A stretch of 64,000 nucleotides of DNA from assembly GCA_964359735.1 (NCBI GenBank), contig CAYHTZ010000001.1, positions 1,457-65,456 on the forward strand, read 5' to 3'. The notes under the pieces are model-generated. The model had not been told where the DNA came from, searched no databases, and saw only the letters and a program-made list of their open reading frames with translations. Position 1 is the stretch's first letter. Every line of letters begins with the position of its first letter. This document shows, piece by piece, positions 14,892 to 60,337 of this stretch. Both the position numbers and the translations under genes were made by a program. The DNA comes from an uncultured Candidatus Saccharibacteria bacterium (GTDB lineage: Bacteria > Patescibacteriota > Andersenbacteria > UBA10190).

Positions 14892-15759
14892 CGCCGAGGT
14901 TCACGGGTACTACGAACCCAGAACTCGATTGAGTCTTCGCTCTTAACTGCACGCCTAGCTGTGCCAAAAACCGGGCCCAAACATATTGCCAACCCAAATA
15001 ACGCGTATGCCGGTGTACGTGCTCCACTGTAAAGCCAGCCTGTTCCAATAGCCGCGTCAAAGACTCCCGCGTAAAATAATGAAGATGAGCTGGGAAAATA
15101 CAGTACCAGTTTTTTCCCATGAGACGTGCCAGCGGGCTGTCGAACCAGGGTGTCGTTATCACCAGCCATCCATCTGTCTTAAGTGCCTGGGCACCCGCTC
15201 TTAAAAACTCAATCGGTGACACCAAGTGCTCAATGACATCAAAGGCGCAGACCACGTCAAGAGACTGAGCCGGCCAGGTGAGGAGTTTCTTATAGTCGCC
15301 TTGCTCAATATCTAGGCCTAACTGTTCTCGTCCAAAAGTTGCCGCCCAGTTGGCCACTTCCAAACCCTTCACGGTCCAGCCCCGCGCCTCCGCCTCTGCC
15401 AGAAAAAACCCTGGTCCGCTGCCGACATCAGCTAACGCGCCTCGCGCGGGAGCGAGTGCCTCAATGCGGTACAAGACCTGACGGGCTGTTTTGCGCCGGC
15501 CCACTGACGTTGTAACATAGGACTCGTCTTGCTCCGCCGCCCGATACCAGGCCAGAATCGTGGCTTCGTCGGGAACGTGCGGCGTAAATCCATGACCGCA
15601 CCGCTGACACCGTACTACCGTCAAATGTTCCTTAGCATCGCCGGCCGCTACTTTATATGAAGATGGTCTACGAAAAAAGTCATCTGCCGGAACGGCACCG
15701 GGTTTAAATAGCTCTGTTTTTCCACCGCACACTGGACACACTTCATCTCGCTGCACCAT
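14860..15759 (-). CDS. Class I SAM-dependent methyltransferase with N-terminal zinc ribbon
   Basis: CPVCGG...CQRCGH; LADVGSGPGFF; DVVCAFDVIEHL. Confidence 0.65.
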   Translation of the reverse strand: MVQRDEVCPVCGGKTELFKPGAVPADDFFRRPSSYKVAAGDAKEHLTVVRCQRCGHGFTPHVPDEATILAWYRAAEQDESYVTTSVGRRKTARQVLYRIEALAPARGALADVGSGPGFFLAEAEARGWTVKGLEVANWAATFGREQLGLDIEQGDYKKLLTWPAQSLDVVCAFDVIEHLVSPIEFLRAGAQALKTDGWLVITTPWFDSPLARLMGKNWYCIFPAHLHYFTRESLTRLLEQAGFTVEHVHRHTRYLGWQYVWARFLAQLGVQLRAKTQSSSGFVVPVNLGDEFEIYAQKR

Positions 15760-15783
15760 ATAGGCATTTCACCACTATTTGCT

Positions 15784-16092
15784 ATGCTGATCAATATGAA
15801 AGTCACCGCGGTGTTGCCGGCCTTTAACGCCGAAAAGACCTTACAGAAAACGTACGACGCCATTCCCAAGGGCCACGTTCACGAAATTATTCTGGTCGAC
15901 GACGCCAGCACGGATAATACGGTGGCACGAGCCCAAACTATTCCCGATTTAATTGTTGTCATACATCAGAAAAACCGCGGGTATGGTGGCAACCAAAAAA
16001 CGTGCTACGACGAAGCCTTACGCCGCGGCGCATCGCTTCGCGCCGGCAGGTACGCTGACAGGCGCGGGGGCCTCCACACGCGAACGTCTTGA
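15784..16092 (+). pseudogene. GT2 (Dpm1-like) N-terminal fragment, truncated after about 100 aa
   Basis: MKVTAVLPAFNAEKTL...ILVDDASTDNT...NRGYGGNQK, then similarity ends (RRGASLRAGRYADRRGGLHTRTS*) where paralogs continue DIVV..HGDGQY; the 3' end overlaps the convergent gene. Confidence 0.45.
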
Positions 16093-29492: not shown

Positions 29493-30017
29493 CTAGGCCA
29501 GTGTTGGATATATGCCTGGCGGTTCCGGCTCACGGAATACCTCTGCTCGTTGGATTAGTTCCGTAGTAGTCGCTTGTACTTGCCCCGAACGCTCTAACGC
29601 TTGTATCTCCGAAAGTGTTTTCCACTCTGCTCTAACATGGCCCCCACGAGCCACTACATCAGGCTTTTGCCCCGGAGGAAACTCCACAATCAGAATATCA
29701 ATAGAGCGGTCAACAAATTTAGTTTCATCACGCGGATCAGGCAATCTTCGAAAGACATGGCCACCGCGGCGAAGGTCGTCCTGCCCCACAAGAATCCCTG
29801 TCTCTTCCTCTAATTCACGTGCCGCAGCTTTCCAGGCCAGATCCCCGTCCTCTTCTTCAACCTTACCTCCTGGCAGATTTAATTGATTCGCCCAACGTTT
29901 GCCTGGCGCTCTCTCGAGCAGCAAGTATTCATCCCCGCATTTCACAACAATAACCACAAATGGTCGCACGCCATCCCGCCCGAAATCTGGAATGTCCGCG
30001 GCCTTATTCGTTAACAT
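29493..30017 (-). CDS. NUDIX hydrolase
   Basis: NUDIX box GGKVEEEDGDLAWKAAARELEEETGI. Confidence 0.7.
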   Translation of the reverse strand: MLTNKAADIPDFGRDGVRPFVVIVVKCGDEYLLLERAPGKRWANQLNLPGGKVEEEDGDLAWKAAARELEEETGILVGQDDLRRGGHVFRRLPDPRDETKFVDRSIDILIVEFPPGQKPDVVARGGHVRAEWKTLSEIQALERSGQVQATTTELIQRAEVFREPEPPGIYPTLA

Positions 30018-32682: not shown

Positions 32683-33644
32683 CAGTAATGCTTCCTATAC
32701 TTTTTGTAGTACTCCACCATCTGCCGGATGCCATCTTTCAAAGAAACTCTAGCCTGCCAGCCGGTGAGGGATTCTATCTTAGACGTGTCGGCCACGTAGT
32801 TGCCCGTCTCATTCTTCTCATAATTTTCCGGCCAGGGCACGTGCTTTTTGCTGCCGCTACCTACTTCGGCCAGCACCGCGTCCACCATGTCCACAAACTT
32901 CACGCGCTCGTGCGTGCCAATGTTATAGATTTCACCTGCCTCGCCTTTGCCTGCCAGCTGTAAGAACGCATCGACGATGTCGTCCACGTACATGTAATCC
33001 CGCTCCTGTTGGCCATCGCCAAATATTTGGATTTCTTTATCCTCCATGGCGAGCCGCACAAACCAGCCCACAATAGAGTACTTGCTGTGTTTCATCTGCT
33101 GCCTGGGCCCATACGGGTTAGGAATATGTACTGACACCGTGTGTAAGCCAAATGTGTCCGCGTAGTAACGGTAATATTTTTCTCCGAGAAGTTTATGAAT
33201 CCCGTAAACCGAAAGGGGATTCGTAGGGTGGTCCTCTTTCACTGGTGTCGTCAAAATCTTCCCGTACGCCAAGCGCGAGGAGGAAAACAAAATCTTGGCC
33301 TTCGGGTTATGCTCGCGCATGGCTTCTAGCACATTGAGATGTCCCCGGCCATTGATATCTAAATCCAAAAACGGCTGGTCTTTTGAGTCTATGTAGCTCA
33401 CCTGCGCCGCGAAATTGAAGATTAAGTCTTTTTCCTGAACCAGCTTGTCTATTACCTCTTTGTCGCGAATGTCACCTCTAATAAATTCAACCTTGTCCCG
33501 AATCCCTTCCAAATTAAATTCATTTCCTCCGTAGAGAGGCAACATCGCGTCAAGGACAGTCACGGTATCTCCGCGTGCCACCAAAGCATGAGCAAGATTG
33601 CTGCCTATAAATCCGGCGCCGCCCGTAATGAGAACTTTCGCCAT
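32679..33644 (-). CDS. NAD-dependent epimerase/dehydratase (GalE-like extended SDR)
   Basis: ITGGAGFIGSNL; YGIHKLLGE (YxxxK). Confidence 0.7.
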   Translation of the reverse strand: MAKVLITGGAGFIGSNLAHALVARGDTVTVLDAMLPLYGGNEFNLEGIRDKVEFIRGDIRDKEVIDKLVQEKDLIFNFAAQVSYIDSKDQPFLDLDINGRGHLNVLEAMREHNPKAKILFSSSRLAYGKILTTPVKEDHPTNPLSVYGIHKLLGEKYYRYYADTFGLHTVSVHIPNPYGPRQQMKHSKYSIVGWFVRLAMEDKEIQIFGDGQQERDYMYVDDIVDAFLQLAGKGEAGEIYNIGTHERVKFVDMVDAVLAEVGSGSKKHVPWPENYEKNETGNYVADTSKIESLTGWQARVSLKDGIRQMVEYYKKYRKHYW

Positions 33645-33653
33645 TCCTTTAGC

Positions 33654-34796
33654 TTACGACTTCGCGTACTTCAAGTACAGTTCGTGATACTGCTGCATAA
33701 TGTTGCCCCAATCGTACTTCATAGCCATCTCTCGGCTGACGTTCCCCATTTTTTTGCGCACCTCCACATTGTTAATTAGGGTAGCCAAATCCTGGGCTAG
33801 TTTTTCAGTGTCTTCACCAGGAATCAAGAATCCATTTCCACCTTCTTTGACAATCTCGTTATTACCTCCGACATCACTGGCCACGATGGGGAGCCCTACG
33901 CCCATCGCCTCTAAAATCACCGCTGGCATGCCTTCATAAAGAGAAGTCAGCACAAAAATATCCGCATACTGATACGACTTCTCCAGCTGGTCGTAGGGAA
34001 CTGTACCTACGTACTGGATCAAGTCCGTCACACCACGTTCCTCGGCCATTTGGTCGAGGGTAGTACGAAACGCGCCGCTGCCCACCACTTCCACTACAAA
34101 GGGAACCTTTGCCAGCTCGCGCAAGCGCGGCAGCGCCTTAATCACTCGCTGGAAACCCTTGCGCTCAATCAGGCGGCCGATAAACAATACTTTTACTTTA
34201 GCGTTTGCCGGCCGTTCGATAGGCTTAAAACGCTCAGTCTCTACCCCATTCGGTATCATCAAGAACTCGCTTTCTGGGTCAGCCTTCTTTCCCAACCGCA
34301 CCAGCTCATCTGAACACACCGTCCGAAACTCGGCGCGGCGCCAGATCACGCGCAGGAGTGGAGCAATAATCGGATATAAATTTTTGTAGCGCGAAGGGTT
34401 AGCGCCAGGGATGTCCGAACCGCCAAAATACACCGCGTAGGGAATGCCTCGCAGGTATGAAATGATCCACGCCACCCAACCTGCCGGCAAGGCAAAATAC
34501 GCCTGAATAAAATCCATTTGGTGCTGCAACGTATAGAAGAGTGTATAAACCAATGCGGAGACACCAAACGTTACCAATTCCCACGGCGCGGAGAAATCCT
34601 TAAAGCGACGGATTGCCGGAATACGGATCACCTTCGCTCCTTCCACCGTCTCTGTTTTAGGCAACCCCTTGAAAGAAGAGGTAATGAGCGTCACCTCATG
34701 CCCCGCTTTCACAAGATATCGCAGGGCGTATTTCGTTACCGTTGAACCACCGCCGCCGATCGGCGGGAACTCATTGTTAATCAGCAGCAGCTTCAT
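33654..34796 (-). CDS. GT4 glycosyltransferase
   Basis: N-terminal FPPIGGGGS; C-terminal E-x7-E region LYEGMPAVILEAMGVGLPIVASDVGG. Confidence 0.7.
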   Translation of the reverse strand: MKLLLINNEFPPIGGGGSTVTKYALRYLVKAGHEVTLITSSFKGLPKTETVEGAKVIRIPAIRRFKDFSAPWELVTFGVSALVYTLFYTLQHQMDFIQAYFALPAGWVAWIISYLRGIPYAVYFGGSDIPGANPSRYKNLYPIIAPLLRVIWRRAEFRTVCSDELVRLGKKADPESEFLMIPNGVETERFKPIERPANAKVKVLFIGRLIERKGFQRVIKALPRLRELAKVPFVVEVVGSGAFRTTLDQMAEERGVTDLIQYVGTVPYDQLEKSYQYADIFVLTSLYEGMPAVILEAMGVGLPIVASDVGGNNEIVKEGGNGFLIPGEDTEKLAQDLATLINNVEVRKKMGNVSREMAMKYDWGNIMQQYHELYLKYAKS

Positions 34797-35730
34797 TAAA
34801 CCCCTTCGTTGTCTTAATTGAATATAGTTTCTTTTCCGCGTAGTAGGTGTGCGCCACTACATCCGCCAGCACTCCCGTGAGCAAAAACTGAAACCCCAGC
34901 AGTACCAGCAGCACGGCCAAGAGCGGAGATGACCGCCCTGCCAAGCTAATCACTCTGAGTAGCCACAGGAGCCCCAACATCCCGCCAAGGATGAACCCAA
35001 CCGCGATAAAGGCCGCCCCAATCGCCCCGAAGAAGTGCATCGGGCGGGCCGAATACTGAATCCAAAACTTCACCACCAAAAGATCCAAAAACCCCTTGAG
35101 CTTCTTTTTAATAGAATATTTGGTTTGCCCGCTCTGGCGCGGATGGTGTCGGACGGGAGCCTCTCCCACTTTAAACCCCTTCCAGGCTAGGAGCGCCGTA
35201 ATATACCGATGCATCTCCCCGTACAACTCTAAGTCCTGCAGGGCCTCCCGCCGGTACACTTTGAGGCTGCAACCATGGTCATGAATTTTTTCACCAGTAA
35301 CCCACCGACGTAGTGAATTTCCAATTCTGCTGCCCAACATGAGTAGCTGGTTATCTTTCCGCTTTTGCCGCCAACCGGATACCACGTCGTAGCCTTCTTC
35401 TAATTTGGCGAGCAGCTTAGGAATGTCCTCTGGATCATTCTGCAAATCTGCATCGAGCACGATCACTACCTCTCCCGCGGCGTGGTCAAACCCAGCCGAC
35501 CACCCGGCAGTTTGCCCGAACTTTTTGCGAAATTGGATCAGCTTGACTCGAGGGTCCTGCCCAGCGAGCTGGCTAATAATTTCTCCGGTACGGTCGGTGG
35601 AGCCGTCGTCAACCATGATCAGTTCCCACTCGCCAACGGCATCCATAACTTTCTTCACAGCGTCGTGGAGCGGGCGAACGTTTTCCTCCTCATTATGTGC
35701 GGGGACAACAATCGAATATTTCACTGGCAT
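34777..35730 (-). CDS. GT2 polyprenol-phosphate glycosyltransferase (ArnC/GtrB-like) with C-terminal TM helices
   Basis: YSIVVPAHNEEEN...MVDDGSTDRT...VLDADLQNDPEDIP; two C-terminal TM segments. Confidence 0.7.
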   Translation of the reverse strand: MPVKYSIVVPAHNEEENVRPLHDAVKKVMDAVGEWELIMVDDGSTDRTGEIISQLAGQDPRVKLIQFRKKFGQTAGWSAGFDHAAGEVVIVLDADLQNDPEDIPKLLAKLEEGYDVVSGWRQKRKDNQLLMLGSRIGNSLRRWVTGEKIHDHGCSLKVYRREALQDLELYGEMHRYITALLAWKGFKVGEAPVRHHPRQSGQTKYSIKKKLKGFLDLLVVKFWIQYSARPMHFFGAIGAAFIAVGFILGGMLGLLWLLRVISLAGRSSPLLAVLLVLLGFQFLLTGVLADVVAHTYYAEKKLYSIKTTKGFNEAAAD

Positions 35731-35808: not shown

Positions 35809-36690
35809 CTACGGATTCTCTTCAACAATCTCCAGCAAATACTCGCCGTACCCACTTTTGATAAGATCTTGAGCTAGCTGTTTTAATTGGCCTTTGCCAA
35901 TGTACCCCATCCGGTAGGCAACCTCTTCTAGGCAACCAATCTTGAGCCCCTGTCGCTCTTCAATGATCTGCACGAAATTAGCGGCCTGTAGGAGAGATCG
36001 ATGCGTTCCTGTATCCAACCAGGCCGTCCCGCGGCTCAAGACTGAGACGCGCAGTTTTCCTTCTGATAAATAGCGATTGTTAACATCGGTGATTTCCAGT
36101 TCCCCGCGGTCAGAAGGGCTGAGACCCTTGGCAATACCTACTACCTCGTTATCAAAGAAATACACCCCCGGTACCGCAAAATGGGATTTAGGCTGTTTCG
36201 GTTTCTCTTCAATCGAGACCGCCTTGCCGTCCTCATCGAATTCAACTACGCCGTATCGCCCTGGGTCGACGACGTGGTAGGCGAAAATCATTCCGCCGCC
36301 TTCATCCTCAACCTGCGCGCGGGCAGATTGCACCGTCGTACTTAACTCATTCCCATAAAAAATATTATCGCCTAAAATGAGCGCCACACCATCTTTACCT
36401 ACAAATTTCTGGCCGATAATGAAGGCTTGCGCCAAGCCTTCCGGCTTGGGCTGGGAAGCATACTGGAATTTCATACCTAACCGCGAGCCGTCGCCTAAGA
36501 GTTTTTCGTACTGAGGCAAGTCATACGGAGTGGAAATAATCAAAATTTCACTAATGCCTGCCAGCATGAGCGTGCTAATGGGGTAGTACACCATCGGCTT
36601 GTCATAAACAGGCATGAGCTGTTTACTCACCGGGATGGTCAGCGGGTACAGCCGCGTTCCCGATCCCCCGGCCAGAACAATTCCTTTCAT
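35809..36690 (-). CDS. rmlA: Glucose-1-phosphate thymidylyltransferase
   Basis: [18 protein letters not shown]...[16 protein letters not shown]. Confidence 0.85.
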
Positions 36691-36699
36691 AGGCTCATA

Positions 36700-37710
36700 T
36701 TATTCTCCCAGACTCTTTTTGGGAATGAGATAATTCTGCACATAATCAGCAATGGCATCCTCCAGCTCCGTCATCTCTTCTCCATAGCCAGTGGCTCTGA
36801 GTTTAGAAATATCCGCCTGGGTAAAATTCTGGTACTGGTTTTTCAAGTTGGCCGGCATATCCACGTAGCGAATGTTCGGCATTTTCCCCACCGCGAAAAA
36901 CATCGCCCTCGCCACGTCGTTCCAACTCCTGGCTTTGCCAGTACCAACATTGTATATACCCGCGGCCTCGCGGTGATCCAGTAACCACAAAGTAGCAGCT
37001 AGTACATCTTTAATGTAAATGAAGTCTCGCTTCTGCTCGCCATCACCGAAGTCGGGGTGGTTCGACTTAAAGAGCTCAACCACTCCCTCCTGCTGCATCT
37101 GGTGAAACTTCTTAAACGGCACGCTAGCCATTTCTCCCTTGTGGTACTCATTAGGTCCAAACACATTAAAGTAGCGCACCCCCGCCACTCCGCCAGTTGG
37201 CGGATTGAGGTAGCCCCCGTCCCGCGCCCAAATATCTACCAGCAACTTGGATTTCCCATACAGGTTGAGCGGCACCAGTTCCCCAAAGAGAGCATGGTCA
37301 TCGCTGTATCCCCGCGCGCCATCGCCGTAGGTTGCCCCGCTTGAGGCATATACGCAGCGCGCCCCGCGGTCTGAACACCAGCGGATAATATCCTTAGAAT
37401 ACTCAACGTTATTATCCAACAAGTATTCCCAGTCCGTTTCCGTTGTACTGCTACATGCCCCCATGTGCAGTATGGCTTCGATGCCTGCCCCGCGAAGCCT
37501 CGGTGAAGTGGGGTCGTAATCGCCTGCCCGCAGCCTTTCTCGAAATTCTTTGATTCCAACCAACTCCTCATACTTGAGCGGAGCAATGTTGCACTCCTTC
37601 TCGTCGTGACCAACATCGTCTACCAAGAGAATATTGCTTTCTCCGCGCTCGTTTAAAGCCCATAACAGCGCCGAGCCGATAAAGCCCGCCGCGCCAGTGA
37701 TAACAATCAT
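36700..37710 (-). CDS. hldD: ADP-L-glycero-D-manno-heptose 6-epimerase (HldD/RfaD); carries a family B insertion
   Basis: MIVITGAAGFIGSAL...ILHMGACSSTTE...YASSGATYG aligns along its length with E. coli HldD; ATGA overlap with the upstream gene; track ORF extends to 37803. Confidence 0.75.
   Translation of the reverse strand: MIVITGAAGFIGSALLWALNERGESNILLVDDVGHDEKECNIAPLKYEELVGIKEFRERLRAGDYDPTSPRLRGAGIEAILHMGACSSTTETDWEYLLDNNVEYSKDIIRWCSDRGARCVYASSGATYGDGARGYSDDHALFGELVPLNLYGKSKLLVDIWARDGGYLNPPTGGVAGVRYFNVFGPNEYHKGEMASVPFKKFHQMQQEGVVELFKSNHPDFGDGEQKRDFIYIKDVLAATLWLLDHREAAGIYNVGTGKARSWNDVARAMFFAVGKMPNIRYVDMPANLKNQYQNFTQADISKLRATGYGEEMTELEDAIADYVQNYLIPKKSLGE
37484..37514. repeat. Family B element, copy 5, in-frame in hldD (encodes PTSPRLRGAG)
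   Basis: cctgccccgcgaagcctcggtgaagtgggg. Confidence 0.8.
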
Positions 37711-38219
37711 GTCCGTATCTTGGCGATGAGGCGCGTAGTTGACAAGTGATTGCGTCGCGGAGTGGTGTATCCTTTCGCCCCCACTTCTTGCATGGCGGGC
37801 CACTCAACCCACGTTTCCGGCAGGCCATAATCCGGGCCGTTGATATGCACGTGCGGTTTCACTGCTCGCACGAGCGCCTGCGGCACTCCGCCTCCATACG
37901 GGGCATCAATGACTATCACATAATCCACACACGCGAGCGCTGCTAACATAGCGGCGCGGGCTGCCTCAGGAATATAAGGACGGCTGGTCCCTTTCCCCTG
38001 CTGCACAGATTCATCTGAGTTCAGTCCCACGAATAACACATCGCCTTGGCGCCTCGCCTCTTCGAGCTGGTCAAGATGCCCGGCGTGTAAAAAGTCGAAC
38101 GAACCATTCACCGTCACAATCTTCTTGCCAGCACCCCGCAGCTCCCCAGCAACCTTGGCCGCCTCCTCGAGCGTTTTCATTTTCTCAGTCCGCCAGTTCG
38201 TTGTATCGAATTCAGGCAT
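37707..38219 (-). CDS. hldE: D-glycero-beta-D-manno-heptose 1-phosphate adenylyltransferase (stand-alone HldE domain II)
   Basis: KIVTVNGSFDFLHAGHLDQLEEAR...LFVGLNSDESV matches the E. coli HldE C-terminal domain. Confidence 0.7.
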   Translation of the reverse strand: MPEFDTTNWRTEKMKTLEEAAKVAGELRGAGKKIVTVNGSFDFLHAGHLDQLEEARRQGDVLFVGLNSDESVQQGKGTSRPYIPEAARAAMLAALACVDYVIVIDAPYGGGVPQALVRAVKPHVHINGPDYGLPETWVEWPAMQEVGAKGYTTPRRNHLSTTRLIAKIRT

Positions 38220-39207
38220 GTTTATGGACTACCATATTAAGCAATACCTCTGGGGTGATACCAACCGCTCCCACCCTACTGACTACTATAGCACCTGCCG
38301 CATTCGCGAGCTCAGCGGCTTCCACATCCGTCCCTCCCGCGAGCTTAGATAGTGCAATGGCCACCGCAGCCGTATCGCCAGCGCCGGAGGTGTCGGCTAC
38401 CTCCACTTCATGCTCCTGGCGTACATGGCGGCCTTCCCGATCCTTCCCCAGCACGTAGATGCCCTCTTCCGAGAGAGTGAGGTATATGTCTGATCCGAAT
38501 TTTTTGCGTAACTCCTGTGCCAATTCCTCCTTCGGTCTCCCCCCTTTATCGTACATATCTACTCCTAGATACTCATGCGCTTCTTTGCGATTAGGAGAAA
38601 TAATAGACACACCCACAAAGTATGCCGCCCGCGAAGGCTTTACGTCTGCCATGACCAACACATGTTCCTGTGTTTGCTTGCGCATAACAGCCTCTGCCAC
38701 TTTCGCCGTCACTACCCCCTTGGCGTAGTCAGACACAATAATCGCGTCGATATTTCCTACACTCTCCAGTGCCCGGAGCAATTCTTTTTCAATATCTTCT
38801 GGAATCTCCCGTGCCTCCTCATAATCAACTCTGAGCATTTGCTGGCTGCGTACGATATATCGAATCTTCTCAGTGGTGGGCCGGCTGGCGTCGCGCACCA
38901 GGTTAAGTTCATAGCCTTCCTCGCGAGCCGCTGCCTCCACGCGCCGGGCGATATCGTCATCACCCACCACCCCGATTAGCACCGCCTTAGCCCCTAGGGT
39001 TGCCACGTTCTTAGCTGTGTTGCCGGCCCCCCCCGTGGCGTATTTCTCCTCCTTGGCATGCAAAATTGGCACTGGCGCTTCAGGGTTAAGCCGCTCCACG
39101 TTGCCGAATACATACCGGTCCAACATGACGTCGCCCACCACCAGTACACGTTTGCCCGCGAACTGATCAATTATTTCCTTGGCTCGCTTCGGGTTCAAAG
39201 GATTCAC
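38212..39207 (-). CDS. hldE: D-glycero-beta-D-manno-heptose-7-phosphate kinase (stand-alone HldE domain I, PfkB family)
   Basis: RVLVVGDVMLDRY...PEAPVPIL...DTSGAGDT matches the E. coli HldE N-terminal domain. Confidence 0.7.
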   Translation of the reverse strand: MNPLNPKRAKEIIDQFAGKRVLVVGDVMLDRYVFGNVERLNPEAPVPILHAKEEKYATGGAGNTAKNVATLGAKAVLIGVVGDDDIARRVEAAAREEGYELNLVRDASRPTTEKIRYIVRSQQMLRVDYEEAREIPEDIEKELLRALESVGNIDAIIVSDYAKGVVTAKVAEAVMRKQTQEHVLVMADVKPSRAAYFVGVSIISPNRKEAHEYLGVDMYDKGGRPKEELAQELRKKFGSDIYLTLSEEGIYVLGKDREGRHVRQEHEVEVADTSGAGDTAAVAIALSKLAGGTDVEAAELANAAGAIVVSRVGAVGITPEVLLNMVVHKHA

Positions 39208-39739
39208 AAATTAAGTGTATAGCGTGCAAATGGAGCTCCTGCATGCGGGATGGCGTCTCACTCGGGGAGATAACCGCATAGTCGGCCGTATTCTTGAACG
39301 TGCCGCGCGGCCCGGTAAATGCAATCACTGTCATACCTTGATCGTGCGCAGCTTCAGCAGCCTTCAAAATATTCTTGGAAGTACCTGAAGTCGTGAGCCC
39401 AATAAAAATGTCTCCCTCATTCCCCAGCGCCCGCACCTGCCGAGCGAATACTTCTTCGTACCCGTAATCATTGCCAATACAGGTAATGACAGCGCCATCG
39501 GCCGTAAGCGCTACCACGGGATAGGCCGGCCGGTCCTCCTTGTAGCGGCCCACCATCTCATCAGAAAAATGTAGGGCTTCGGCCGCACTACCGCCATTGC
39601 CAGCCACCAAAACCTTATTCCCATTCCCAAATGCCTCTTTCAGCTGTTGCACCACCATGGCTACTTGTCCATGAAATTCTCCCAGATTACCGAGCACTGC
39701 TTGCAATTCCTGCGAATGTTTTTGGAACACATCTTTCAT
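39167..39739 (-). CDS. gmhA: Phosphoheptose isomerase (SIS domain)
   Basis: KVLVAGNGGSAAEALHFSDEMVGRY...RPAYPVVALT matches E. coli GmhA. Confidence 0.8.
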   Translation of the reverse strand: MKDVFQKHSQELQAVLGNLGEFHGQVAMVVQQLKEAFGNGNKVLVAGNGGSAAEALHFSDEMVGRYKEDRPAYPVVALTADGAVITCIGNDYGYEEVFARQVRALGNEGDIFIGLTTSGTSKNILKAAEAAHDQGMTVIAFTGPRGTFKNTADYAVISPSETPSRMQELHLHAIHLICESFEPEASQGNN

Positions 39740-39754
39740 AGGCGCTAACAGTAC

Positions 39755-40624
39755 CTACATTGTAGCCGAAGTCAAATACTCCTGCAGCGCGTCTTGCCAA
39801 TGGCGCAGCTTCGGTCCGCGCGTGTTCTGAAGAATACTGTATTTCGGCCGCTTAGCCGGTCGTACAAACTTATCCGAGGTGGTCGGCTGTACATCCACCG
39901 AGATTCCCGCCGTCTCAAAAATCTTCTTCGCAAAATCATACCACGTGGTCTCACCAAAGTTCACCGCGTGGTAAATTCCTGGCGGATACTTTTCCCGATT
40001 CTCTAAAACAGCCCGGGTGGCCCCTGCCACATCCTTCGTAAACGTCGGGCTGCCGTGCTGGTCATCAACTACCTGCAACGCAGGTAACCCTGAGCTTGTC
40101 GAAGGGCTGCTTCGCTCTTTGCCCAGCTTCAGCATAGTATCCACAAAGTTTTTACCCCCCGGCCCATAGAGCCAAGCCGTGCGCAGAAGATAAAATCGTC
40201 CACCTACTTCCTTCAGCGCGCGCTCACCCGCCAGTTTGGATTGGCCGTAATAGTTAACCGCCGGCCCCGGCGCGTCGTCCTCGGCATAGCCCGTTTTCTT
40301 ATCGCCCGGGAACACGTAGTCAGTACTATAGTGCACCAATGGAATATCCAACTCTTTGGCCACACTCGCCAAGTAGCGCACCGCGTTTCCGTTTACCGTA
40401 AGACAAACCTCTTGGTTCGCTGAATCCTCTGCGCCATCGACATTGGTGTAGGCAGCCGCATTTACAACTACATTAGGGCGAAGTTCGATGACTTTCTGCC
40501 GCACTTCCGCTTCGTTGGTAATGTTGAGCTCTTCCTTATCCCATGGCGCAACGTCCCAGTCGTTCAACACTTTTTGCAGCATGCCCCCAAGCATACCCTT
40601 GGCACCTAAGATCAACACCTTCAT
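39755..40624 (-). CDS. rmlD: dTDP-4-dehydrorhamnose reductase
   Basis: MKVLILGAKGMLG...VVVNAAAYTNVDGAED. Confidence 0.8.
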   Translation of the reverse strand: MKVLILGAKGMLGGMLQKVLNDWDVAPWDKEELNITNEAEVRQKVIELRPNVVVNAAAYTNVDGAEDSANQEVCLTVNGNAVRYLASVAKELDIPLVHYSTDYVFPGDKKTGYAEDDAPGPAVNYYGQSKLAGERALKEVGGRFYLLRTAWLYGPGGKNFVDTMLKLGKERSSPSTSSGLPALQVVDDQHGSPTFTKDVAGATRAVLENREKYPPGIYHAVNFGETTWYDFAKKIFETAGISVDVQPTTSDKFVRPAKRPKYSILQNTRGPKLRHWQDALQEYLTSATM

Positions 40625-40676
40625 ATAACGAAATTATTATATCAGACTCTTCAGTCAGTTTTGCACCTACCAATCA

Positions 40677-40706
40677 ATGTTACAATTAATCGATATATTG
40701 TAACAT
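40677..40706. promoter_or_regulatory. AT-rich palindromic operator-like site immediately upstream of the TrpR/YerC-like gene
   Basis: atgttacaat-taatcgatat-attgtaacat: 10-bp inverted arms; shares the 17-mer tacaattaatcgatata with the site at 41201. Confidence 0.5.
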
Positions 40707-40712
40707 AAGCCT

Positions 40713-41189
40713 ATGGGAAAAGTGGATTACACAACTGTGCCAACTCCAGAACGGCAGACGATGATTCGAGAGCTCGCCAAGTTTCTTCTCTCAGTCAAGG
40801 ATGAGAAAGACATGATCCAAGTACTGTACCGTCTTCTCACCCACAGTGAAGTTGTTATGCTCGGCCGCCGCTTGCAAATCGCGGAGGAGCTTCTGCAAGG
40901 AAGTCCCTATCACACGATCCGCGAAAAACTCAAAGTCGGCATTACGACCATTAAGTCGATCGACAACTGGCTCGAATACGCCGTTCGCGACTACGACATG
41001 TATCGAAGCAAAAAACACCATGAGGAAACAACTCGAGAAGCGCGGGAACGATCCCGACAGCGCCTTGAACCTGGTATGCCGGGGTCCTTTACACACCTTC
41101 GCCGCAGTCATCCTGGCCACTTTCTACTTCTCAATCTTCTCCTTGACCTCCCTTCGAAAAATCCTAAACCAAGCAAAGCGAAATCATGA
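40713..41189 (+). CDS. TrpR/YerC/YecD-family DNA-binding protein (paralog 1)
   Basis: LTHSEVVMLGRRLQIAEELLQGSPYHTIREKLKVGITTIKSIDNWL helix-turn-helix region typical of the family; paralogous to 49459..49890. Confidence 0.6.
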   Translation: MGKVDYTTVPTPERQTMIRELAKFLLSVKDEKDMIQVLYRLLTHSEVVMLGRRLQIAEELLQGSPYHTIREKLKVGITTIKSIDNWLEYAVRDYDMYRSKKHHEETTREARERSRQRLEPGMPGSFTHLRRSHPGHFLLLNLLLDLPSKNPKPSKAKS

Positions 41190-41202
41190 TCTGGTGTACA
41201 TA

Positions 41203-41228
41203 CAATTAATCGATATATCGATTAATTG
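41203..41228. promoter_or_regulatory. Perfect 26-bp palindrome downstream of the TrpR-like gene
   Basis: caattaatcgatatatcgattaattg; inverted CGATAT half-sites. Confidence 0.5.
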
Positions 41229-41246
41229 ATACAGGAACCAAACTCC

Positions 41247-41618
41247 CTATTCTGCTTTGACGCGGACAAAGAAGTACTCGCTCGTCTCGTTACCAGTCGC
41301 CTCAATTTTGTGTCGGCCACCTGCAGGAATTGTTACGACATCTCCTTTCCGGTAATCCACTACCTCAGCCTCAAAGTAAAATTTGCCCTCCCCACGCAGC
41401 ACAACAAAGAACTCATCTACAGTGTCGTGAGAGTGCCAGTCAAATACTGAGCCTGATTCCAGATATCCCTTCGTCATGGCCTCAACATGCGAGCCTACTA
41501 GCATATCTGATGTGATCAGGACTTGCCTCGAACCTGATCCCCCATGCGCTTGTTCAATTGGAATATCGCCAAGGTTTCGCTTGGTAAATCGCTTCGTCAT
41601 TTCAGAAGCGCATTCCAA
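41247..41618 (-). CDS. Cupin-domain protein
   Basis: VFDWHSHDTVDEFFVVLRGEGKFYFE...VVTIPAGGRHKIEA. Confidence 0.55.
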   Translation of the reverse strand: MECASEMTKRFTKRNLGDIPIEQAHGGSGSRQVLITSDMLVGSHVEAMTKGYLESGSVFDWHSHDTVDEFFVVLRGEGKFYFEAEVVDYRKGDVVTIPAGGRHKIEATGNETSEYFFVRVKAE

Positions 41619-42463
41619 TCGTCCGAGAATCGCTTCAAACCCACGTCGGTCAGCTCGTGATGCAAGTTATACTCGCGCCACGGTTTCCCCAGCTCAATCT
41701 CCTCATAAGAGATATCTTTACCTTCAAATACATAAGTAAAATTTTCATCAGGTAGCGGAAACCCAGCATCTGCCCATAGCTGAAATCGCTCGTAGTTAAT
41801 TGTTAAAATATCAGCCCCCGCTTGGATGATCGCCAAAATATTCTCTACCCGCCGAAAACTCGCTGCCAATACTTTCACATGACCATCACCCTGCTTCAAC
41901 ATGCGTACTACATTACTCACAAATTGCACACCGTTCTCTCCCCGGTCATCTAACCTGCCCACAAAGGGAGAGATCACAACGGGCTCTTTTGCCCCCGCTG
42001 TGGCGGAATATACTGCAGCGGCCTGCTGCTGCGAAAAGCAAAGTGTCATATTAAGCCGAAGTTCGTTCTTCAACGTTTCCGCTGCTATTAGCCCCTGCTT
42101 GACCGTTGGCAATTTAATCCTGGCTGTTGGTATCCAGGTATACATTTCCCGAGCTTGGCGAATCATCTCTTCCGCCAATGTGGTTGCATCAGCATACACC
42201 TCTACCGAAATATCACCTCCGGGAATAATCTCCAGCAGCTTTTCTACGGCCTCACGATAGGCCCCGAGCAACTCCTCACGGGTGTACTTTTTCCCTTCTT
42301 TGATACGTGTCTGAACTTCAGGATTCTTGGCAAAATAGGAAGGATTAGTGGTAGCACCGTCTAAACCACCATATCCCGCACCCTGCACCATACCCTGAAC
42401 CTTCTCCGCCTCGCCGGGGTCCCCGGTATCAACAAAGAGACTTGCTTGTGTAAGTCGCTTCAT
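41597..42463 (-). CDS. tal: Transaldolase (short subfamily)
   Basis: GLDGATTNPSYFAK motif; 288 aa. Confidence 0.75.
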   Translation of the reverse strand: MKRLTQASLFVDTGDPGEAEKVQGMVQGAGYGGLDGATTNPSYFAKNPEVQTRIKEGKKYTREELLGAYREAVEKLLEIIPGGDISVEVYADATTLAEEMIRQAREMYTWIPTARIKLPTVKQGLIAAETLKNELRLNMTLCFSQQQAAAVYSATAGAKEPVVISPFVGRLDDRGENGVQFVSNVVRMLKQGDGHVKVLAASFRRVENILAIIQAGADILTINYERFQLWADAGFPLPDENFTYVFEGKDISYEEIELGKPWREYNLHHELTDVGLKRFSDDWNALLK

Positions 42464-43386
42464 TTCAAGAATGATTTAGTCGTCTGATAGATTCCCTCGG
42501 CATCAATCCCGAGTTTACCGATCAGATCAGCATATTTCCCAGATTCTCCGAATTGTGTCACACCAATGCGCTTCAAGCGCGTCGGCTGATACTCTGAGAG
42601 AACCTCTGCCACGGCAGAGCCTAAGCCCCCGTTAATATTGTGGTCCTCGACTGTTACCACCTTCCCAGTTTTCTTCGCCGAGGCGGCCACAGTTTTCGCA
42701 TCGATTGGCTGAAGGGTATGAACATTCACCACTTCGGCATCGATCCCCCCACCCTTCAGCTTCTCCGCAGCCTCCAACGCAAAAGCTACTTGCGGCCCGG
42801 TGCCTATAATTGTCACATCTTTCCCGGGGCGCACCACCTTGGCTTTGCCGATGGCAAATTTCTCTTGAGGTTTCGTAAAGAGAGACGTCGGTTCGCGGTA
42901 GAGTCGCAGATACACCGGCCCTTTGGCGGCCACTACAGCTTTCAGTGCCTGCTTCATTTCATTCGCGTCTGCCGGAAATATCACTGTCATATTGGGAAGG
43001 GCCCGCATATATGCGAGGTCTTCCAGAGCATGGGCGCTGCCGCCATCAAGCGCATTCGAAACTCCTCCGTGGGAGCCCACCATCACCGCGTGGACATTAT
43101 TCTGGCAGATTTGCATGCGGATATGGTCGAATGCCCGCGTCATAAAGATTCCAAATGTCCCCGCCACCGGTATATAACCAGCCAGAGCCAATCCAGCGGA
43201 AACTCCGGCCATGTTCGCCTCAGCCACACCGGTATCAATGAACCGCTCGGGCATTTCCTCCCGAATTTTCAGCATGCGTAGGCTCTCGCCCAAATCGGCT
43301 GTGAGCGCCACAACCTTCTCATTCTTTTCCATGATTTCGTATAACCCATCCCCGAATGCCTGCCGTGTTGCCACCAGTTCTTTCAT
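42460..43386 (-). CDS. Transketolase, C-terminal subunit
   Basis: Pyrimidine-binding and C-terminal domains; GVAEANMAGVSAGLALAGYIPVAGTF. Confidence 0.8.
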   Translation of the reverse strand: MKELVATRQAFGDGLYEIMEKNEKVVALTADLGESLRMLKIREEMPERFIDTGVAEANMAGVSAGLALAGYIPVAGTFGIFMTRAFDHIRMQICQNNVHAVMVGSHGGVSNALDGGSAHALEDLAYMRALPNMTVIFPADANEMKQALKAVVAAKGPVYLRLYREPTSLFTKPQEKFAIGKAKVVRPGKDVTIIGTGPQVAFALEAAEKLKGGGIDAEVVNVHTLQPIDAKTVAASAKKTGKVVTVEDHNINGGLGSAVAEVLSEYQPTRLKRIGVTQFGESGKYADLIGKLGIDAEGIYQTTKSFLK

Positions 43387-44207
43387 GCAAGTTCCTTCTT
43401 AGCAATTTCATATTGTTCAGCCGATATCGCCCCCGCGTGCCAGTGGTCGCTGCCTTCCATGTAAGAAACCCCTTTGCCGCGCACCGTGTGCGAGATTAAG
43501 ACCGTCGGCCCTTCCATTCCTTTTGCATCTTGAAACGCGCGCAGCACCGCCTCGATATCATGGCCATCCACTTCAATCACATTCCAGTTAAAAGCCTGGT
43601 ACTTATCTGGGAGAGGATCAAGCGTAGGCATGACGTCCTCCGTGGCCCCATCGATCTGAAACTTGTTTTTGTCGACAATCGCCACTAAATTATTCAGCCC
43701 AAGCTTTGGGGCCAGCATGACTGCTTCCCAGGTTGAGCCTTCCTGCTGCTCGCCATCGCTCATCATAACGTAGATGCGATTGCCTTTCTTCTGCAGCCTA
43801 TGCGCATACGCGAGCCCGATGCCCACCGAAAGGCCTTGCCCCAGGCTGCCCGATGAGATCTCAATCCCTGGTAAGCTCCCTCGGTGAGGGTGGCCTTGCA
43901 CGCGAGCGCCCAGCTGCCTCAAGTTCTTCAATTCTTTCTTGGGAAAGTACCCCGACTCTGCTAAAACTACATACAATCCCGGGCACGCGTGGCCATTACT
44001 CAGTAAGAAGTAATCCCGCGCAGGGTCCTGGGGCTTCTTCGGGTCATGGCGCAGAACTCCGCCAAAGTAGAGTGCCACTAATACCTCCATGATCGACAGG
44101 GCGCTCCCCGGATGCCCCGACTGCGCTGCATATAACATTCCAATCGCATCCCACTTGAGTTTTCGTACCAACGGTGCCAGCTCGTCAACTTTCATCATAG
44201 GCATCAT
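43383..44207 (-). CDS. Transketolase, N-terminal subunit (TPP-binding)
   Basis: AQSGHPGSALSIMEVLVALYF...MMSDGEQQEGSTWEA; 4-nt overlap with the C-terminal subunit gene. Confidence 0.8.
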   Translation of the reverse strand: MMPMMKVDELAPLVRKLKWDAIGMLYAAQSGHPGSALSIMEVLVALYFGGVLRHDPKKPQDPARDYFLLSNGHACPGLYVVLAESGYFPKKELKNLRQLGARVQGHPHRGSLPGIEISSGSLGQGLSVGIGLAYAHRLQKKGNRIYVMMSDGEQQEGSTWEAVMLAPKLGLNNLVAIVDKNKFQIDGATEDVMPTLDPLPDKYQAFNWNVIEVDGHDIEAVLRAFQDAKGMEGPTVLISHTVRGKGVSYMEGSDHWHAGAISAEQYEIAKKELA

Positions 44208-44210
44208 ACG

Positions 44211-45158
44211 TTAGGGCTGCGTCTTCATCCAGTCCATTAAACGTTGTGCACCTTCGGCCAGGGAAACCTTCGGGTTATAGCCCAGCATCTCCCGCGCCTT
44301 ATCAATGTTGGCATAGGTAATCGTCAGTTCCCCCTCTGGCGCCTCGCGCGCCTCAATGCGCGGAGTTTTATGGGCGGCGCGGGAGAGCGCCGCCACCAAC
44401 TCGTGCAGCGACTGCGGCTCTCCTCTACCAATATTGAAAATTTCAAACGCAAATTGACGCTGCGTTGCGGCCATCACCCCGGCCACTACATCATCGATAT
44501 ACGTAAGATCGCGCTTCCTTCCCTCAGTAACATAGAGCGGCTCATCGTTCAGAATTTGCCGGGCGAAAACCGCGGGCGCCATATCCGGCCTGCCCCACGG
44601 GCCGTACACGCTGAAGAAACGCAGCACCGTCATCGGCAAACCGTGCAGCTCATGCCACATAGCGCAAAACGCCTCCGCCGATGCCTTAGACGCTCCATAC
44701 GGAGAGCGAGGCAGGAGCGGCCACATATCTTCTTTAAACGGCGTTTGCTCGTCGTTATACACGCTCGAACTCCCCGCAAAAATGAAGCGGGGAATTTCAT
44801 GCACGGAAGCTGCCTCCAGCACATTTACCGTACCCAAGACGTTAACCAGCGTATATTCTTGCGCGCTTTCAAGACTGCGCGCCGGATTGGCGAGAGCGGC
44901 AAAATGCAGCACGGTGTCGAACTTTTCCTCCGTAAACACCGTATTCAGAAGCTGGGAGTCTAAGACATTACCAACGACGAGGCGCGGTCGCTCTGATTGC
45001 TGGGGAAAGAGGTGGCTGAGCCGCACTTCCTTGAGCTCCGCCGGATACAAGAAGCTATTCATGTCGTCGTACAGCACAACCGTATCTCCCCGGTCTACCA
45101 AGGCGCGCGAGACAAATGCCCCAATAAACCCCGCCCCGCCTGTGATGAGCACCTTCAT
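44211..45158 (-). CDS. NAD-dependent NDP-sugar epimerase (UDP-glucuronate 4-epimerase-like)
   Basis: ITGGAGFIGAFV...YGASKASAE...RFFSVYGPWGRPDMA. Confidence 0.7.
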   Translation of the reverse strand: MKVLITGGAGFIGAFVSRALVDRGDTVVLYDDMNSFLYPAELKEVRLSHLFPQQSERPRLVVGNVLDSQLLNTVFTEEKFDTVLHFAALANPARSLESAQEYTLVNVLGTVNVLEAASVHEIPRFIFAGSSSVYNDEQTPFKEDMWPLLPRSPYGASKASAEAFCAMWHELHGLPMTVLRFFSVYGPWGRPDMAPAVFARQILNDEPLYVTEGRKRDLTYIDDVVAGVMAATQRQFAFEIFNIGRGEPQSLHELVAALSRAAHKTPRIEAREAPEGELTITYANIDKAREMLGYNPKVSLAEGAQRLMDWMKTQP

Positions 45159-45709
45159 ACAGTGAAATTACTTTCGGCGCTCGCAAGCCCCGGGTACACC
45201 TGGTCTTTGCCGGATAGTACGGGAGTAGATGTCGGCCAAGGGATACCGAGCGCGGGATCATTCCAGATAATTCCACGCTCACGTTCAGGAGAGTACACGT
45301 CGGTCACATAGTACATAACCTCGGCTGTCTCCGACGTCACACAAAAACCGTGGGCAAACCCCTCTGGCACGTAAACCAGGTTTTTCTTCGCGGACGACAG
45401 CTGCAGACTCACCCATCTCCCGAAAGTGGGGGAACCTTTGCGGATATCCACGGCTACATCAAAAACTTCCCCTGAGATAGCCGTGAGTAACTTCCCTTGG
45501 GCTTTCGGGTTGAGCTGGTAATGCAAACCTCGGAGAACGTTCCGGGAACTCCGGGAATAATTAAACTGCACGAATTGGACCTCTATACCCGCCTCAACAA
45601 AATCCTTTTCCTTATACATCTCCGCAAAGCCGCCGCGCTCATCCCCAAATACCTGTGGAATTACCTCAACTACGTCCGGAATTTCAAGCGGCCGAAATTG
45701 AAAAGCCAT
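45155..45709 (-). CDS. rmlC: dTDP-4-dehydrorhamnose 3,5-epimerase
   Basis: RGGFAEMYK...LRGLHYQ...KLLTAISGEVFDVAVDIRKGSPTFG...VPEGFAHGF. Confidence 0.8.
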   Translation of the reverse strand: MAFQFRPLEIPDVVEVIPQVFGDERGGFAEMYKEKDFVEAGIEVQFVQFNYSRSSRNVLRGLHYQLNPKAQGKLLTAISGEVFDVAVDIRKGSPTFGRWVSLQLSSAKKNLVYVPEGFAHGFCVTSETAEVMYYVTDVYSPERERGIIWNDPALGIPWPTSTPVLSGKDQVYPGLASAESNFTV

Positions 45710-46791: not shown

Positions 46792-47547
46792 TTACCCCTC
46801 CTGCACAGCTCTCTTGCGCAATACAACCGGGTGACCGTGTAACTCGACGAGCGTTTCAAATCGCCGCTGTTCGGACTTAATATCCTCTTCTACCACATAA
46901 TCAATGAGTTGCTGGTCGAGAAAAATAACACTACCGTCCCTTTGGTCTCGGGACTCCACGGAATTTCCTGCTCCCATTATCAGCTGCCCAGGAGAACACA
47001 CTCGCATCATTTCCCGCGCCACGGCCCGAGCTTTCTCCTCACCAAGCACCACTCCAAAAACTGCTACCGAACGCGGCGCCAAAGCCTGATCTTCTCCATC
47101 AGGCATCCGCTGAAGAGCATCTAACACATCAGCGCGGACATTGATGTCGGGACCGTGGACAGAATACGGCACGCCTTGACTAGTCTCCTGGTTGGCCCTG
47201 GCAACTACATTAATGTTCACATGATGCTGTACTTGAACACCTACCCGCTCACGAAGTAACGCTGGGAAGGAACCTGTGCCTCCAACTTCAACAAGTACTC
47301 CCGTCGGAAAAGACTCAGCCATAACATCCTTCATTGTGTGGTCCCCAACTGTGAGCAAATGCGCTTGATGCAAAAACCCATGGTATCCTCCTGGTCTAGT
47401 GTTCACACCCAGCATGCTTGGTTCTTGCCGGATCAAGTGCTCGTCCACTCTCCTACCATCTGGGTGAGTCGGCGGCTGCCGGCTAAAAAGCGCTTCTACG
47501 TTTAAAGGTTGCGGCCTGGGCTCATGACCATTAAGTCCCTGAGACAT
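46792..47547 (-). CDS. Conserved hypothetical protein (251 aa)
   Basis: Long clean ORF; VEVGGTGSFPALL...GQLIMGAGNS glycine-rich motifs; family not recognised. Confidence 0.5.
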   Translation of the reverse strand: MSQGLNGHEPRPQPLNVEALFSRQPPTHPDGRRVDEHLIRQEPSMLGVNTRPGGYHGFLHQAHLLTVGDHTMKDVMAESFPTGVLVEVGGTGSFPALLRERVGVQVQHHVNINVVARANQETSQGVPYSVHGPDINVRADVLDALQRMPDGEDQALAPRSVAVFGVVLGEEKARAVAREMMRVCSPGQLIMGAGNSVESRDQRDGSVIFLDQQLIDYVVEEDIKSEQRRFETLVELHGHPVVLRKRAVQEG

Positions 47548-59825: not shown

Positions 59826-60296
59826 AGGCGAGGTAGGTGGATGGTCGCTCCTCGCGAGTCGAGGGGAGGAAAGTCCGGACACCTGTGTTCCTTTGAACAT
59901 ATCGTGGTGGCAGGTAACGCCTGCCGGGCGCAAGCCCAGGGAAAGTGCAACAGAAACATACCGCCCTTCGACAAAACCTCAGGGTAAACTGAGCAAGTTT
60001 ACTCTGAGCGAGGCGAAAGCCGAGTCGAAGAGCAATGGTGAAATCGTGAGGTAAGAGCTCACGCATTACGGCAGTAATGCCGCGATGGTGCAAACCCCAC
60101 CTGGTGCAACTTCAAGCAGCCCCGCACCCTTGTGAAATGACAAGGGTGCGGGGCGGGTAGAAGGCAAACTGTTCTGTAGCTCGTCATGACGCTAGAGAAC
60201 GACGAAGCCTGCCGCGAGGCAGGCTCCAGAGAGATGATCATTCATGACCCCGCCTCGGCGGGGCAAGACAGAATCCGGCTTATAGCCTACCTCAGA
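59826..60296 (+). ncRNA. rnpB: RNase P RNA, bacterial type A
   Basis: P4 strands GGAAAGTCCGGAC and ACAGAATCCGGCTTA; GGCAGGTAACGCCTGCC; AGTGCAACAGAAA; GGTAAGAGCTCAC; P1 pairing gaggtaggt/acctacctc; possible TTGACA -35 at about 59797. Confidence 0.8.
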
Positions 60297-60337
60297 CCCC
60301 GTGGTCGCTTTCCAGAGCGCTACGGGGTTTTCTTTTT
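60294..60337 (+). terminator. Putative rho-independent terminator after rnpB
   Basis: ccccgt...acgggg stem followed by ttttcttttt; overlaps the 3' codons of the convergent rnhA. Confidence 0.4.

Follow-up and report, generated by a model that had tools for sequence, protein, structure and literature searches.

We analysed a 64-kb stretch of DNA (the window, by which we mean the whole stretch) from a tiny groundwater bacterium of the Candidate Phyla Radiation (CPR; also called Patescibacteria), which is Andersenbacteria-like, with the interval 35809-45709 as our subject. There, genes predicted to make ADP-heptose (gmhA, hldA, hldC and hldD) lie among dTDP-rhamnose genes (rmlA, rmlC and rmlD) and genes for a two-subunit transketolase (tktN and tktC, together tkt) and a transaldolase (tal); all of them are intact. 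The region is probably the nucleotide-sugar core of a vertically inherited, Andersenbacteria-type envelope-glycan island, in which tkt and tal are housekeeping genes and not dedicated duplicates. We also think it likely that they are the only pentose-phosphate genes of the cell, resident in the glycan cluster and co-expressed with it. The linkage of tkt/tal to the heptose genes is real, clade-specific and old, and the layout is inherited within the clade, as a clade-specific gene order with no new mechanism shown.

Genes were identified from an open reading frame (ORF) listing combined with Pfam and NCBIfam profile scans read against equivalog cut-offs, PDB matches and motif reads (Table 1). 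Candidatus Andersenbacteria and 'Patescibacteria group' metagenome-assembled genomes (MAGs) supply the best named homologs of both HldA and Tal, and an 11-kb contig of an ENA metagenome assembly (locus L001; contig name beginning Hain_H51) is 99.7% identical to the window. Since the nearest homologs are from Andersenbacteria, the host is a CPR bacterium, which backs the guess of an earlier annotation made from the sequence alone (the first-pass annotation) that it would be unlikely to make classical lipopolysaccharide (LPS); bacteria of the CPR have neither an outer membrane nor LPS. That annotation had also proposed a heptose- and rhamnose-containing surface glycan, and the genes do lie in a surface-glycan island. 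The island spans 2-59 kb (~57 kb), nearly the whole window, and holds GT2 and GT4 glycosyltransferases, five PMT_2-type GT-C proteins, YfhO, a MurJ-like flippase, DUF4012 and an initiating Bac_transf protein; it also encodes a sugar C-methyltransferase as well as several methyltransferases. Scattered through it, or standing at its edge, are housekeeping genes (lepA, RNase P RNA, recJ and enolase).

Transketolase and transaldolase genes in the glycan cluster

We compared gene order in 80 species-level loci around HldA homologs (GTDB species), annotated against a panel of window proteins and supplemented by a few loci from exact-protein look-up. Loci of the Andersenbacteria type share a backbone on one strand, murJ-lepA-rmlC-(sdrX)-[tktN-tktC-tal]-rmlD-gmhA-hldA-gmhB-hldC-hldD-rmlA-GT2-GT4-sdrY-PMT_2, where sdrX and sdrY encode SDR epimerases. 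Where the interval from rmlC to rmlD is complete (n = 31 loci), both tkt and tal are present in 9, tal alone in 2 and neither in 20. Tal-first look-ups found homologs at 53-68% identity all at the same cluster position; one Tal homolog of 53% identity, on an 804-kb contig, is located elsewhere, and 11 further Tal matches are on contigs exactly as long as those of HldA matches. Among 80 outgroup tal loci (Tal identity ≤50%), none had heptose genes, and tkt stood beside tal in 10. The tkt/tal-bearing loci fall in several sub-clades of a rough neighbour-joining tree, which suggests that the insertion is old and that losses or relocations came later; tkt and tal probably took up residence in the glycan cluster in an Andersenbacteria ancestor. 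As a control, the gene lepA lies ≤2.5 kb from rmlC in 23 of 24 loci and is a steadier neighbour than tkt/tal. Because lepA is unrelated to sugars, conserved synteny is weak evidence of shared function in this clade.

Outside the clade, a Methanosarcinales MAG (L054, 8726-12235) carries gmhA-gmhB-hldE followed by a transaldolase-family gene, an independent adjacency of tal and heptose genes. Many DPANN and Methanococcales loci also contain ADP-heptose genes.

The profile scans confirm the transaldolase and the two transketolase subunits where the first-pass annotation had put them. Tal belongs to the general CPR transaldolase family (~50% identity to Daviesbacteria and Microgenomates proteins) and scores under every NCBIfam transaldolase cut-off; its nearest solved structures are 1wx0, 3s0c and 1vpx. 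Both the Schiff-base lysine, K117, and F167 are invariant across the family alignment, and the SPFVGR motif has Phe, not Tyr, as in transaldolases. The thiamine diphosphate (ThDP) motif of the transketolase reads SDG...N, not GDG...N, in every Andersenbacteria-type transketolase examined (tktN residues ~148-182), and outgroup split transketolases have GDG or GDS.

The same annotation had described tkt and tal as part of one gene string, co-operonic with the heptose genes. This does not hold for the window, in which a plus-strand gene for a TrpR-like protein splits the run. The gene is convergent with tal and its small cupin neighbour and divergent from rmlD, and therefore tkt/tal cannot share a transcript with gmhA-hldD here. 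The region comprises at least two transcription units, as judged from strand, spacing and overlaps. In the upstream unit, rmlC-sdrX-tktN-tktC-tal-cupin, neighbours share 4-nt overlaps (rmlC/sdrX, tktN/tktC, tktC/tal and tal/cupin) or stand 3 nt apart, so that tkt and tal would be co-operonic with rmlC and sdrX; the downstream unit runs from rmlD to hldD, and probably to rmlA, with overlaps or gaps of ≤15 nt. The same-strand run from tal to rmlD is unbroken in some relatives, L171, L086 and L002 among them.

Transketolase and transaldolase together would turn two fructose-6-phosphate into sedoheptulose-7-phosphate and xylulose-5-phosphate, the former being the substrate of GmhA. Since their product is the GmhA substrate, the position of tkt/tal would be metabolically convenient and would give co-expression with the glycan genes. 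The locus would then encode, in one stretch, the steps leading from hexose phosphate to ADP-heptose, the phosphatase step excepted.

The first-pass annotation went further and proposed a dedicated precursor supply. On such a reading, tkt and tal would be extra copies, or would be specialised for making sedoheptulose-7-phosphate for the heptose glycan, with selection maintaining the linkage. We consider this unlikely, even though the 4-nt overlaps couple tkt/tal translationally to rmlC and sdrX, the insertion is kept in ~10 species-level lineages (to ~53% Tal identity), in relatives rmlD-gmhA comes straight after tal on the same strand, the Methanosarcinales MAG reached such an adjacency independently, and the unusual SDG variant is clade-wide. 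Against it, Tal is of the ordinary CPR type and is thus probably a housekeeping copy, and no second Andersenbacteria tal outside the cluster was seen among the Tal homolog look-ups. The heptose genes also do without tkt/tal in about two-thirds of related clusters (20/31), lepA, with no link to sugars, is the more constant neighbour, and an opposite-strand gene lies between tkt/tal and gmhA in the window. Moreover, CPR genomes are ~1 Mb in size and duplicates in them are rare.

Some results weigh against reading the region as an inherited nucleotide-sugar core with resident housekeeping tkt/tal. The occurrence of the linkage in about a third of clusters, the 4-nt coupling and the adjacency in L054 are compatible with some selection for linkage. 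The heptose genes gmhA, hldA and hldC find the correct best match by a wide margin, yet they score under the NCBIfam equivalog cut-offs. No GT9 heptosyltransferase (WaaC/WaaF type, PF01075) was found among the window proteins by Pfam scans, nor in the gene lists of six related loci (±10 kb). Finally, a scan of the window for sigma-70-type promoters and intrinsic terminators returned 12 sites against 13.4 expected from shuffled sequence, which is not above chance, so that the operon boundaries are drawn from strand, spacing and overlaps only. The chance-level scan also fits a purely incidental co-localisation, in which neighbours in a compact genome share no regulation, as do the embedding of lepA and the RNase P RNA gene in the same island and the opposite-strand gene that parts the two units. 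Nevertheless, we hold such an accident to be very improbable: given the 4-nt overlaps, tkt/tal are very likely co-translated with rmlC and sdrX, the insertion site is constant across lineages (between rmlC/sdrX and rmlD), and the tkt/tal product is the direct substrate of the protein encoded by neighbouring gmhA.

Heptose genes and the loss of gmhB

As the first-pass annotation had it, gmhA, a stand-alone kinase gene (hldA), a stand-alone adenylyltransferase gene (hldC) and hldD lie in one minus-strand run, and the profile scores agree. The runner-up family of hldA is ribokinase, at 76 bits versus 284 for TIGR02198. HldA contains the motifs GDVMLDRY and DTSGAGD, and conservation in its homologs extends from R8 onward. 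The HxGH-type motif of HldC reads LHAGH, and HldD has an intact YGKSK motif; the hldD start is an internal ATG of a longer ORF (336 aa in the L001 gene call). Both overlaps that had been described were read directly, namely the 4-nt ATGA shared by hldC and hldD and the 8 nt shared by hldA and hldC (ATGCCTGA, window 38212-38219). A public gene call on L001 puts the hldC start 13 codons further in, which would abolish the 8-nt overlap. We rejected this shorter start because the skipped N-terminal residues 4-13 (FDTTNWRxEK) are conserved in relatives, so the overlapping upstream ATG is the real start of hldC.

No GmhB or other HAD protein was found in the window by Pfam scans, tblastn with a relative's GmhB and HAD domain, or an HAD motif-I scan, in agreement with the first-pass annotation. 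A GmhB-type HAD gene lies between hldA and hldC, or is fused to hldC, in 34 of the 36 related loci that have both genes, and gmhB is missing only from the window, from its sister L002 and from L010, a more distant locus. L172 has the layout of the window, the opposite-strand TrpR-like gene included, yet it retains gmhB. Many relatives have an 8-nt overlap (ATGnnTRA) between the end of hldA and the start of gmhB. At each of the three gmhB-less loci, that very position is now the start of hldC, with ATGCCTGA encoding Met-Pro-Glu. The junctions fit clean deletions that removed the gmhB body and would have preserved translational coupling, at least twice independently.

Within ±10 kb we saw no substitute phosphatase, nor any gene common only to the three gmhB-less loci. 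Two candidates within the window were rejected, a 251-aa ORF between lepA and rmlC (no Pfam or PDB relative) and a Nudix protein (weak MutT-like matches only). We also rejected a tie between gmhB loss and the presence of tkt/tal, because L010 has neither gmhB nor tkt/tal, and L172, L171, L088 and others have gmhB as well as tkt/tal.

Since the loss, the other genes have remained intact, so the pathway is probably still in use. GmhB is partly redundant in E. coli and Klebsiella (PMC9302095), so the simplest explanation of the missing step is a phosphatase presumably encoded elsewhere in the genome. Alternatively, loss of gmhB may have disabled or changed the pathway, with the remaining genes decaying or with HldC adenylylating heptose-1,7-bisphosphate to ADP-heptose-7-phosphate. 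The missing gene in the window locus and in L002, together with the missing replacement within ±10 kb, would be expected in that case, and tktN of L002 is broken, although the break may be an assembly error. We nonetheless think this improbable. The five remaining genes are intact, in motifs and overlaps, in two species whose HldA proteins are only ~62% identical, which indicates that they have been kept since gmhB was lost; the independent loss in L010 left the other genes intact as well, and in E. coli and Klebsiella, losing GmhB has only a partly penetrant effect (PMC9302095).

A more far-reaching version, to which we give little credence, is that this Andersenbacteria sub-lineage makes ADP-heptose without a GmhB-family phosphatase, either by a non-HAD phosphatase or because HldC uses heptose-1,7-bisphosphate and gives a heptose-7-phosphate glycan, and that the only tkt/tal genes are under envelope-glycan operon control. 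Sole tkt/tal genes under such control would make heptose synthesis a main outlet of pentose-phosphate metabolism. In the interval from 5760 to 6679 of L002, tktN is broken into two or three ORFs, by a frameshift or an assembly error.

Fusions in relatives tie the heptose steps into one pathway: gmhA~hldA, hldC~HAD phosphatase, gmhB~hldC and hldA~hldC (L003:11542-12627, L086:11834-13429 and 14757-15827, L027, L031, L037, L039, L011 and L013). L003 and L086 have two HAD domains in the cluster, and L086 has an inositol-monophosphatase-family gene directly downstream. The gmhA and hldA genes of L009, L011, L013 and L030, which come from Opitutaceae, Pelagisphaera and other Verrucomicrobiota MAGs (several of them Opitutales), are 52-66% identical to those of Andersenbacteria. 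In the rough tree, the Verrucomicrobiota HldA and GmhA nest among those of the CPR, and some of these MAGs carry the gmhB~hldC fusion. This nesting suggests either horizontal transfer from CPR to Verrucomicrobia or mis-binned contigs.

Rhamnose genes, the TrpR-like gene and other island features

The first-pass annotation had listed the dTDP-rhamnose enzymes in the same string, and this holds for rmlA, rmlC and rmlD, which, like hldD, score above curated NCBIfam equivalog cut-offs. It does not hold for the full set: no RmlB, the 4,6-dehydratase (an SDR of the TDEVYG type, with Thr-Asp-Glu), was found in the 64-kb window by motif scan. The epimerases SdrX and SdrY were considered as RmlB and rejected, since both lack the Thr-Asp-Glu motif and both are nearest to epimerases. 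The active-site region of SdrX reads GSSSVYN with YxxxK and without TDE, and the motif of SdrY reads SSSRLAYG. Of the two further epimerases that had been placed within 35809-45709, only sdrX is there; sdrY lies outside this interval. RmlB with the TDEVYG motif is likewise missing from every Andersenbacteria-type locus (L002-L039, L086, L088 and L171), with rmlA, rmlC and rmlD always in the cluster. In the Andersenbacteria class, the RmlB dehydratase is always encoded elsewhere, or it is non-canonical.

The downstream unit rmlD-gmhA-hldA-hldC-hldD-rmlA would continue into GT2-GT4-SDR-PMT_2, with a 4-nt overlap of sdrY and the PMT_2 gene. The GT2 protein has its best NCBIfam matches in ArnC and PgfS, both under cut-off, and its gene is a neighbour kept in synteny. 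The cupin gene of the upstream unit (117 aa in the L001 gene call) has no informative PDB relative and was seen only in this lineage. At the glycan-island edge lies a bacterial class A RNase P RNA. For the 251-aa ORF, neither Pfam, NCBIfam nor PDB gave a relative, and related loci lack a counterpart; its GxGxG-like stretch VEVGGTGS is a hint of a nucleotide- or SAM-binding fold.

Palindromes lie on both sides of the TrpR-like gene. The motif (26-30 nt) has 3 matches in the window versus 0.06 expected and is confined to the flanks of this gene. Orthologs occur in four other CPR lineages, among them L002 and L172, at different genomic positions (the tal/rmlD junction, the hldC/hldD junction, beside a ribosomal-protein operon and beside GT4 genes), each flanked by its own, lineage-specific palindrome. 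The gene thus looks like a regulator that travels with its putative operators, or a small mobile cassette.

In front of genes that follow an intergenic gap (starts 40624, 36690, 45709, 49362, 47547 and 35730), there is often a TATAAT-like box that ends ~7-14 nt short of the ATG, and no Shine-Dalgarno sequence, whereas internal genes of overlapping runs have AGGA/GGAG-type sites. This pattern suggests that the first genes may be leaderless or near-leaderless.

Table 1 Features of the window and of related loci (coordinates are those of the window unless a locus is named; bits are NCBIfam profile scores, with the equivalog cut-off in brackets).
Feature	Position	Strand	Evidence and remarks
Nudix hydrolase	29493-30017	-	Weak MutT/Nudix matches; end of downstream unit
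Large PMT_2 (GT-C fold) membrane glycosyltransferase, 884 aa	30028-32682	-	PF13231 1.5e-8; conserved downstream neighbour
sdrY, SDR epimerase like GalE or CDP-tyvelose 2-epimerase	32679-33644	-	Best PDB 4zrm, 7ys8, 9rl0
GT4 glycosyltransferase	33654-34796	-	PF00534 2.7e-41; conserved downstream neighbour by synteny
GT2 like ArnC, PgfS, GtrB; likely polyprenyl-phosphate sugar synthase	34777-35730	-	PF00535
rmlA, glucose-1-phosphate thymidylyltransferase	35809-36690	-	TIGR01207 467 bits (361)
hldD, ADP-glyceromanno-heptose 6-epimerase	36700-37710	-	TIGR02197 365 bits (274.6)
hldC, stand-alone heptose-1-phosphate adenylyltransferase	37707-38219	-	TIGR02199 132 bits (181.5); PF01467
hldA, stand-alone PfkB-type heptose-7-phosphate 1-kinase	38212-39207	-	TIGR02198 284 bits (345)
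gmhA, sedoheptulose-7-phosphate isomerase	39167-39739	-	TIGR00441 193 bits (209), E = 3e-57; SIS_2
rmlD, dTDP-4-dehydrorhamnose reductase	39755-40624	-	TIGR01214 275 bits (224); opens downstream unit
Near-palindrome with the same 18-nt core as the 26-nt palindrome, TACAATTAATCGATATAT	40677-40706		In the 88-nt divergent rmlD/trpR-like intergenic region
TrpR/YerC-like helix-turn-helix gene, 158 aa	40713-41189	+	PF01371 (Trp_repressor) 1.3e-12; also called in L001
Perfect 26-nt palindrome, CAATTAATCGATATATCGATTAATTG	41203-41228		Between the 3' ends of the trpR-like and cupin genes
Small cupin	41247-41600	-	Cupin_2 9.7e-15; closes upstream unit
tal, short-type transaldolase with insertions, 288 aa	41597-42463	-	PF00923 (TAL_FSA barrel) 9.7e-42
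tktC, transketolase pyrimidine-binding and C-terminal subunit	42460-43386	-	PF02779, PF02780; NF004559 positions 316-624, 309 bits
tktN, transketolase N-terminal (ThDP-binding) subunit	43383-44207	-	PF00456 1.4e-56; NF004559 positions 13-279, 288 bits
sdrX, SDR epimerase most like UDP-glucuronate 4-epimerase	44211-45158	-	Best PDB 5u4q, 6zl6
rmlC, dTDP-4-dehydrorhamnose 3,5-epimerase	45155-45709	-	TIGR01221 234 bits (156); opens upstream unit
251-aa ORF	46792-47547	-	Between lepA and rmlC
Bacterial class A RNase P RNA	59829-60298	+	197 bits
gmhB-less hldA/hldC junctions	Window 38212-38219; L002:10962-10969; L010:11013-11020
Palindromes at TrpR-like orthologs	L002:11585-11615 and 12115-12144; L173:10487-10514; L174:7824-7851 and 8460-8473
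Palindromes at the L172 ortholog	~10 nt upstream of the 10001 start; ~55-85 nt past the 10414 stop

Comparison with known systems

Bacteria of the CPR have not been cultivated, get by on a minimal metabolism and are believed to be host-attached, so their surface glycans probably matter for their lifestyle. Here, the toolkit for ADP-heptose and rhamnose looks complete and is kept by a whole CPR class within a large glycosylation island, with no LPS to receive the heptose. Concrete targets follow from this: the nature of the predicted polymer that would carry the heptose, a heptosyltransferase not of the GT9 type, and the working of the pathway once gmhB is lost. In addition, ADP-heptose is an innate-immune agonist, which makes its production by monoderm CPR lineages worth knowing.

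Separate HldA and HldC are known in Neisseria and Ralstonia (PMC10221265), and the set described here resembles that split pathway in its GmhA, PfkB-type kinase, cytidylyltransferase-fold adenylyltransferase and HldD, with the kinase and the adenylyltransferase as separate genes. It differs in having a CPR host without LPS, no GT9 gene nearby and no GmhB at the locus, and in the interleaving of rml, tkt and tal. ADP-heptose is also made by Gram-positive Streptomyces, for septacidin and hygromycin B (PMC10221265). Both cases concern bacteria that do not build LPS; however, the Streptomyces product feeds secondary metabolites, whereas the genes here sit in an envelope-glycan island with GT2, GT4, GT-C and flippase genes. 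ADP-heptose synthesis has already been noted alongside dTDP-rhamnose synthesis in CPR Paceibacteria (PMC9166423), the same predicted pathway in the same superphylum, although that survey lists pathways only and gives no gene order, tkt/tal insertion or recurrent gmhB loss. Our literature searches on a transketolase-GmhA gene cluster, and on ADP-heptose in the Candidate Phyla Radiation by that name, returned nothing. Apparently not described before are the conservation of gene order, the insertion of tkt/tal, the repeated deletion of gmhB, and the lack of both RmlB and GT9 in the cluster.

The S-layer glycan of Aneurinibacillus contains a heptose supplied as GDP-D-glycero-alpha-D-manno-heptose via GmhA-HddA-GmhB-HddC. 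As in our locus, a heptose for the surface glycan of a monoderm would be derived from sedoheptulose-7-phosphate via GmhA. The Aneurinibacillus route employs a GHMP kinase and a guanylyltransferase, whereas the PfkB-type kinase, the HldC-type transferase and HldD found here point to the ADP-linked beta route; the HddC model reached only 42 bits, on rmlA. Further downstream, the GT2-GT4-SDR-PMT_2 block is reminiscent of three-component extracytoplasmic glycosylation, in which a GtrB/ArnC/PgfS-type GT2 is paired with an ArnT/PMT/YfhO-type GT-C, and the window holds four further PMT_2 proteins and a YfhO beyond this block, although all scores here are far under the equivalog cut-offs. Overall, the ADP-heptose pathway of this Andersenbacteria-type island is a new example of a known pathway and not a new kind of system.

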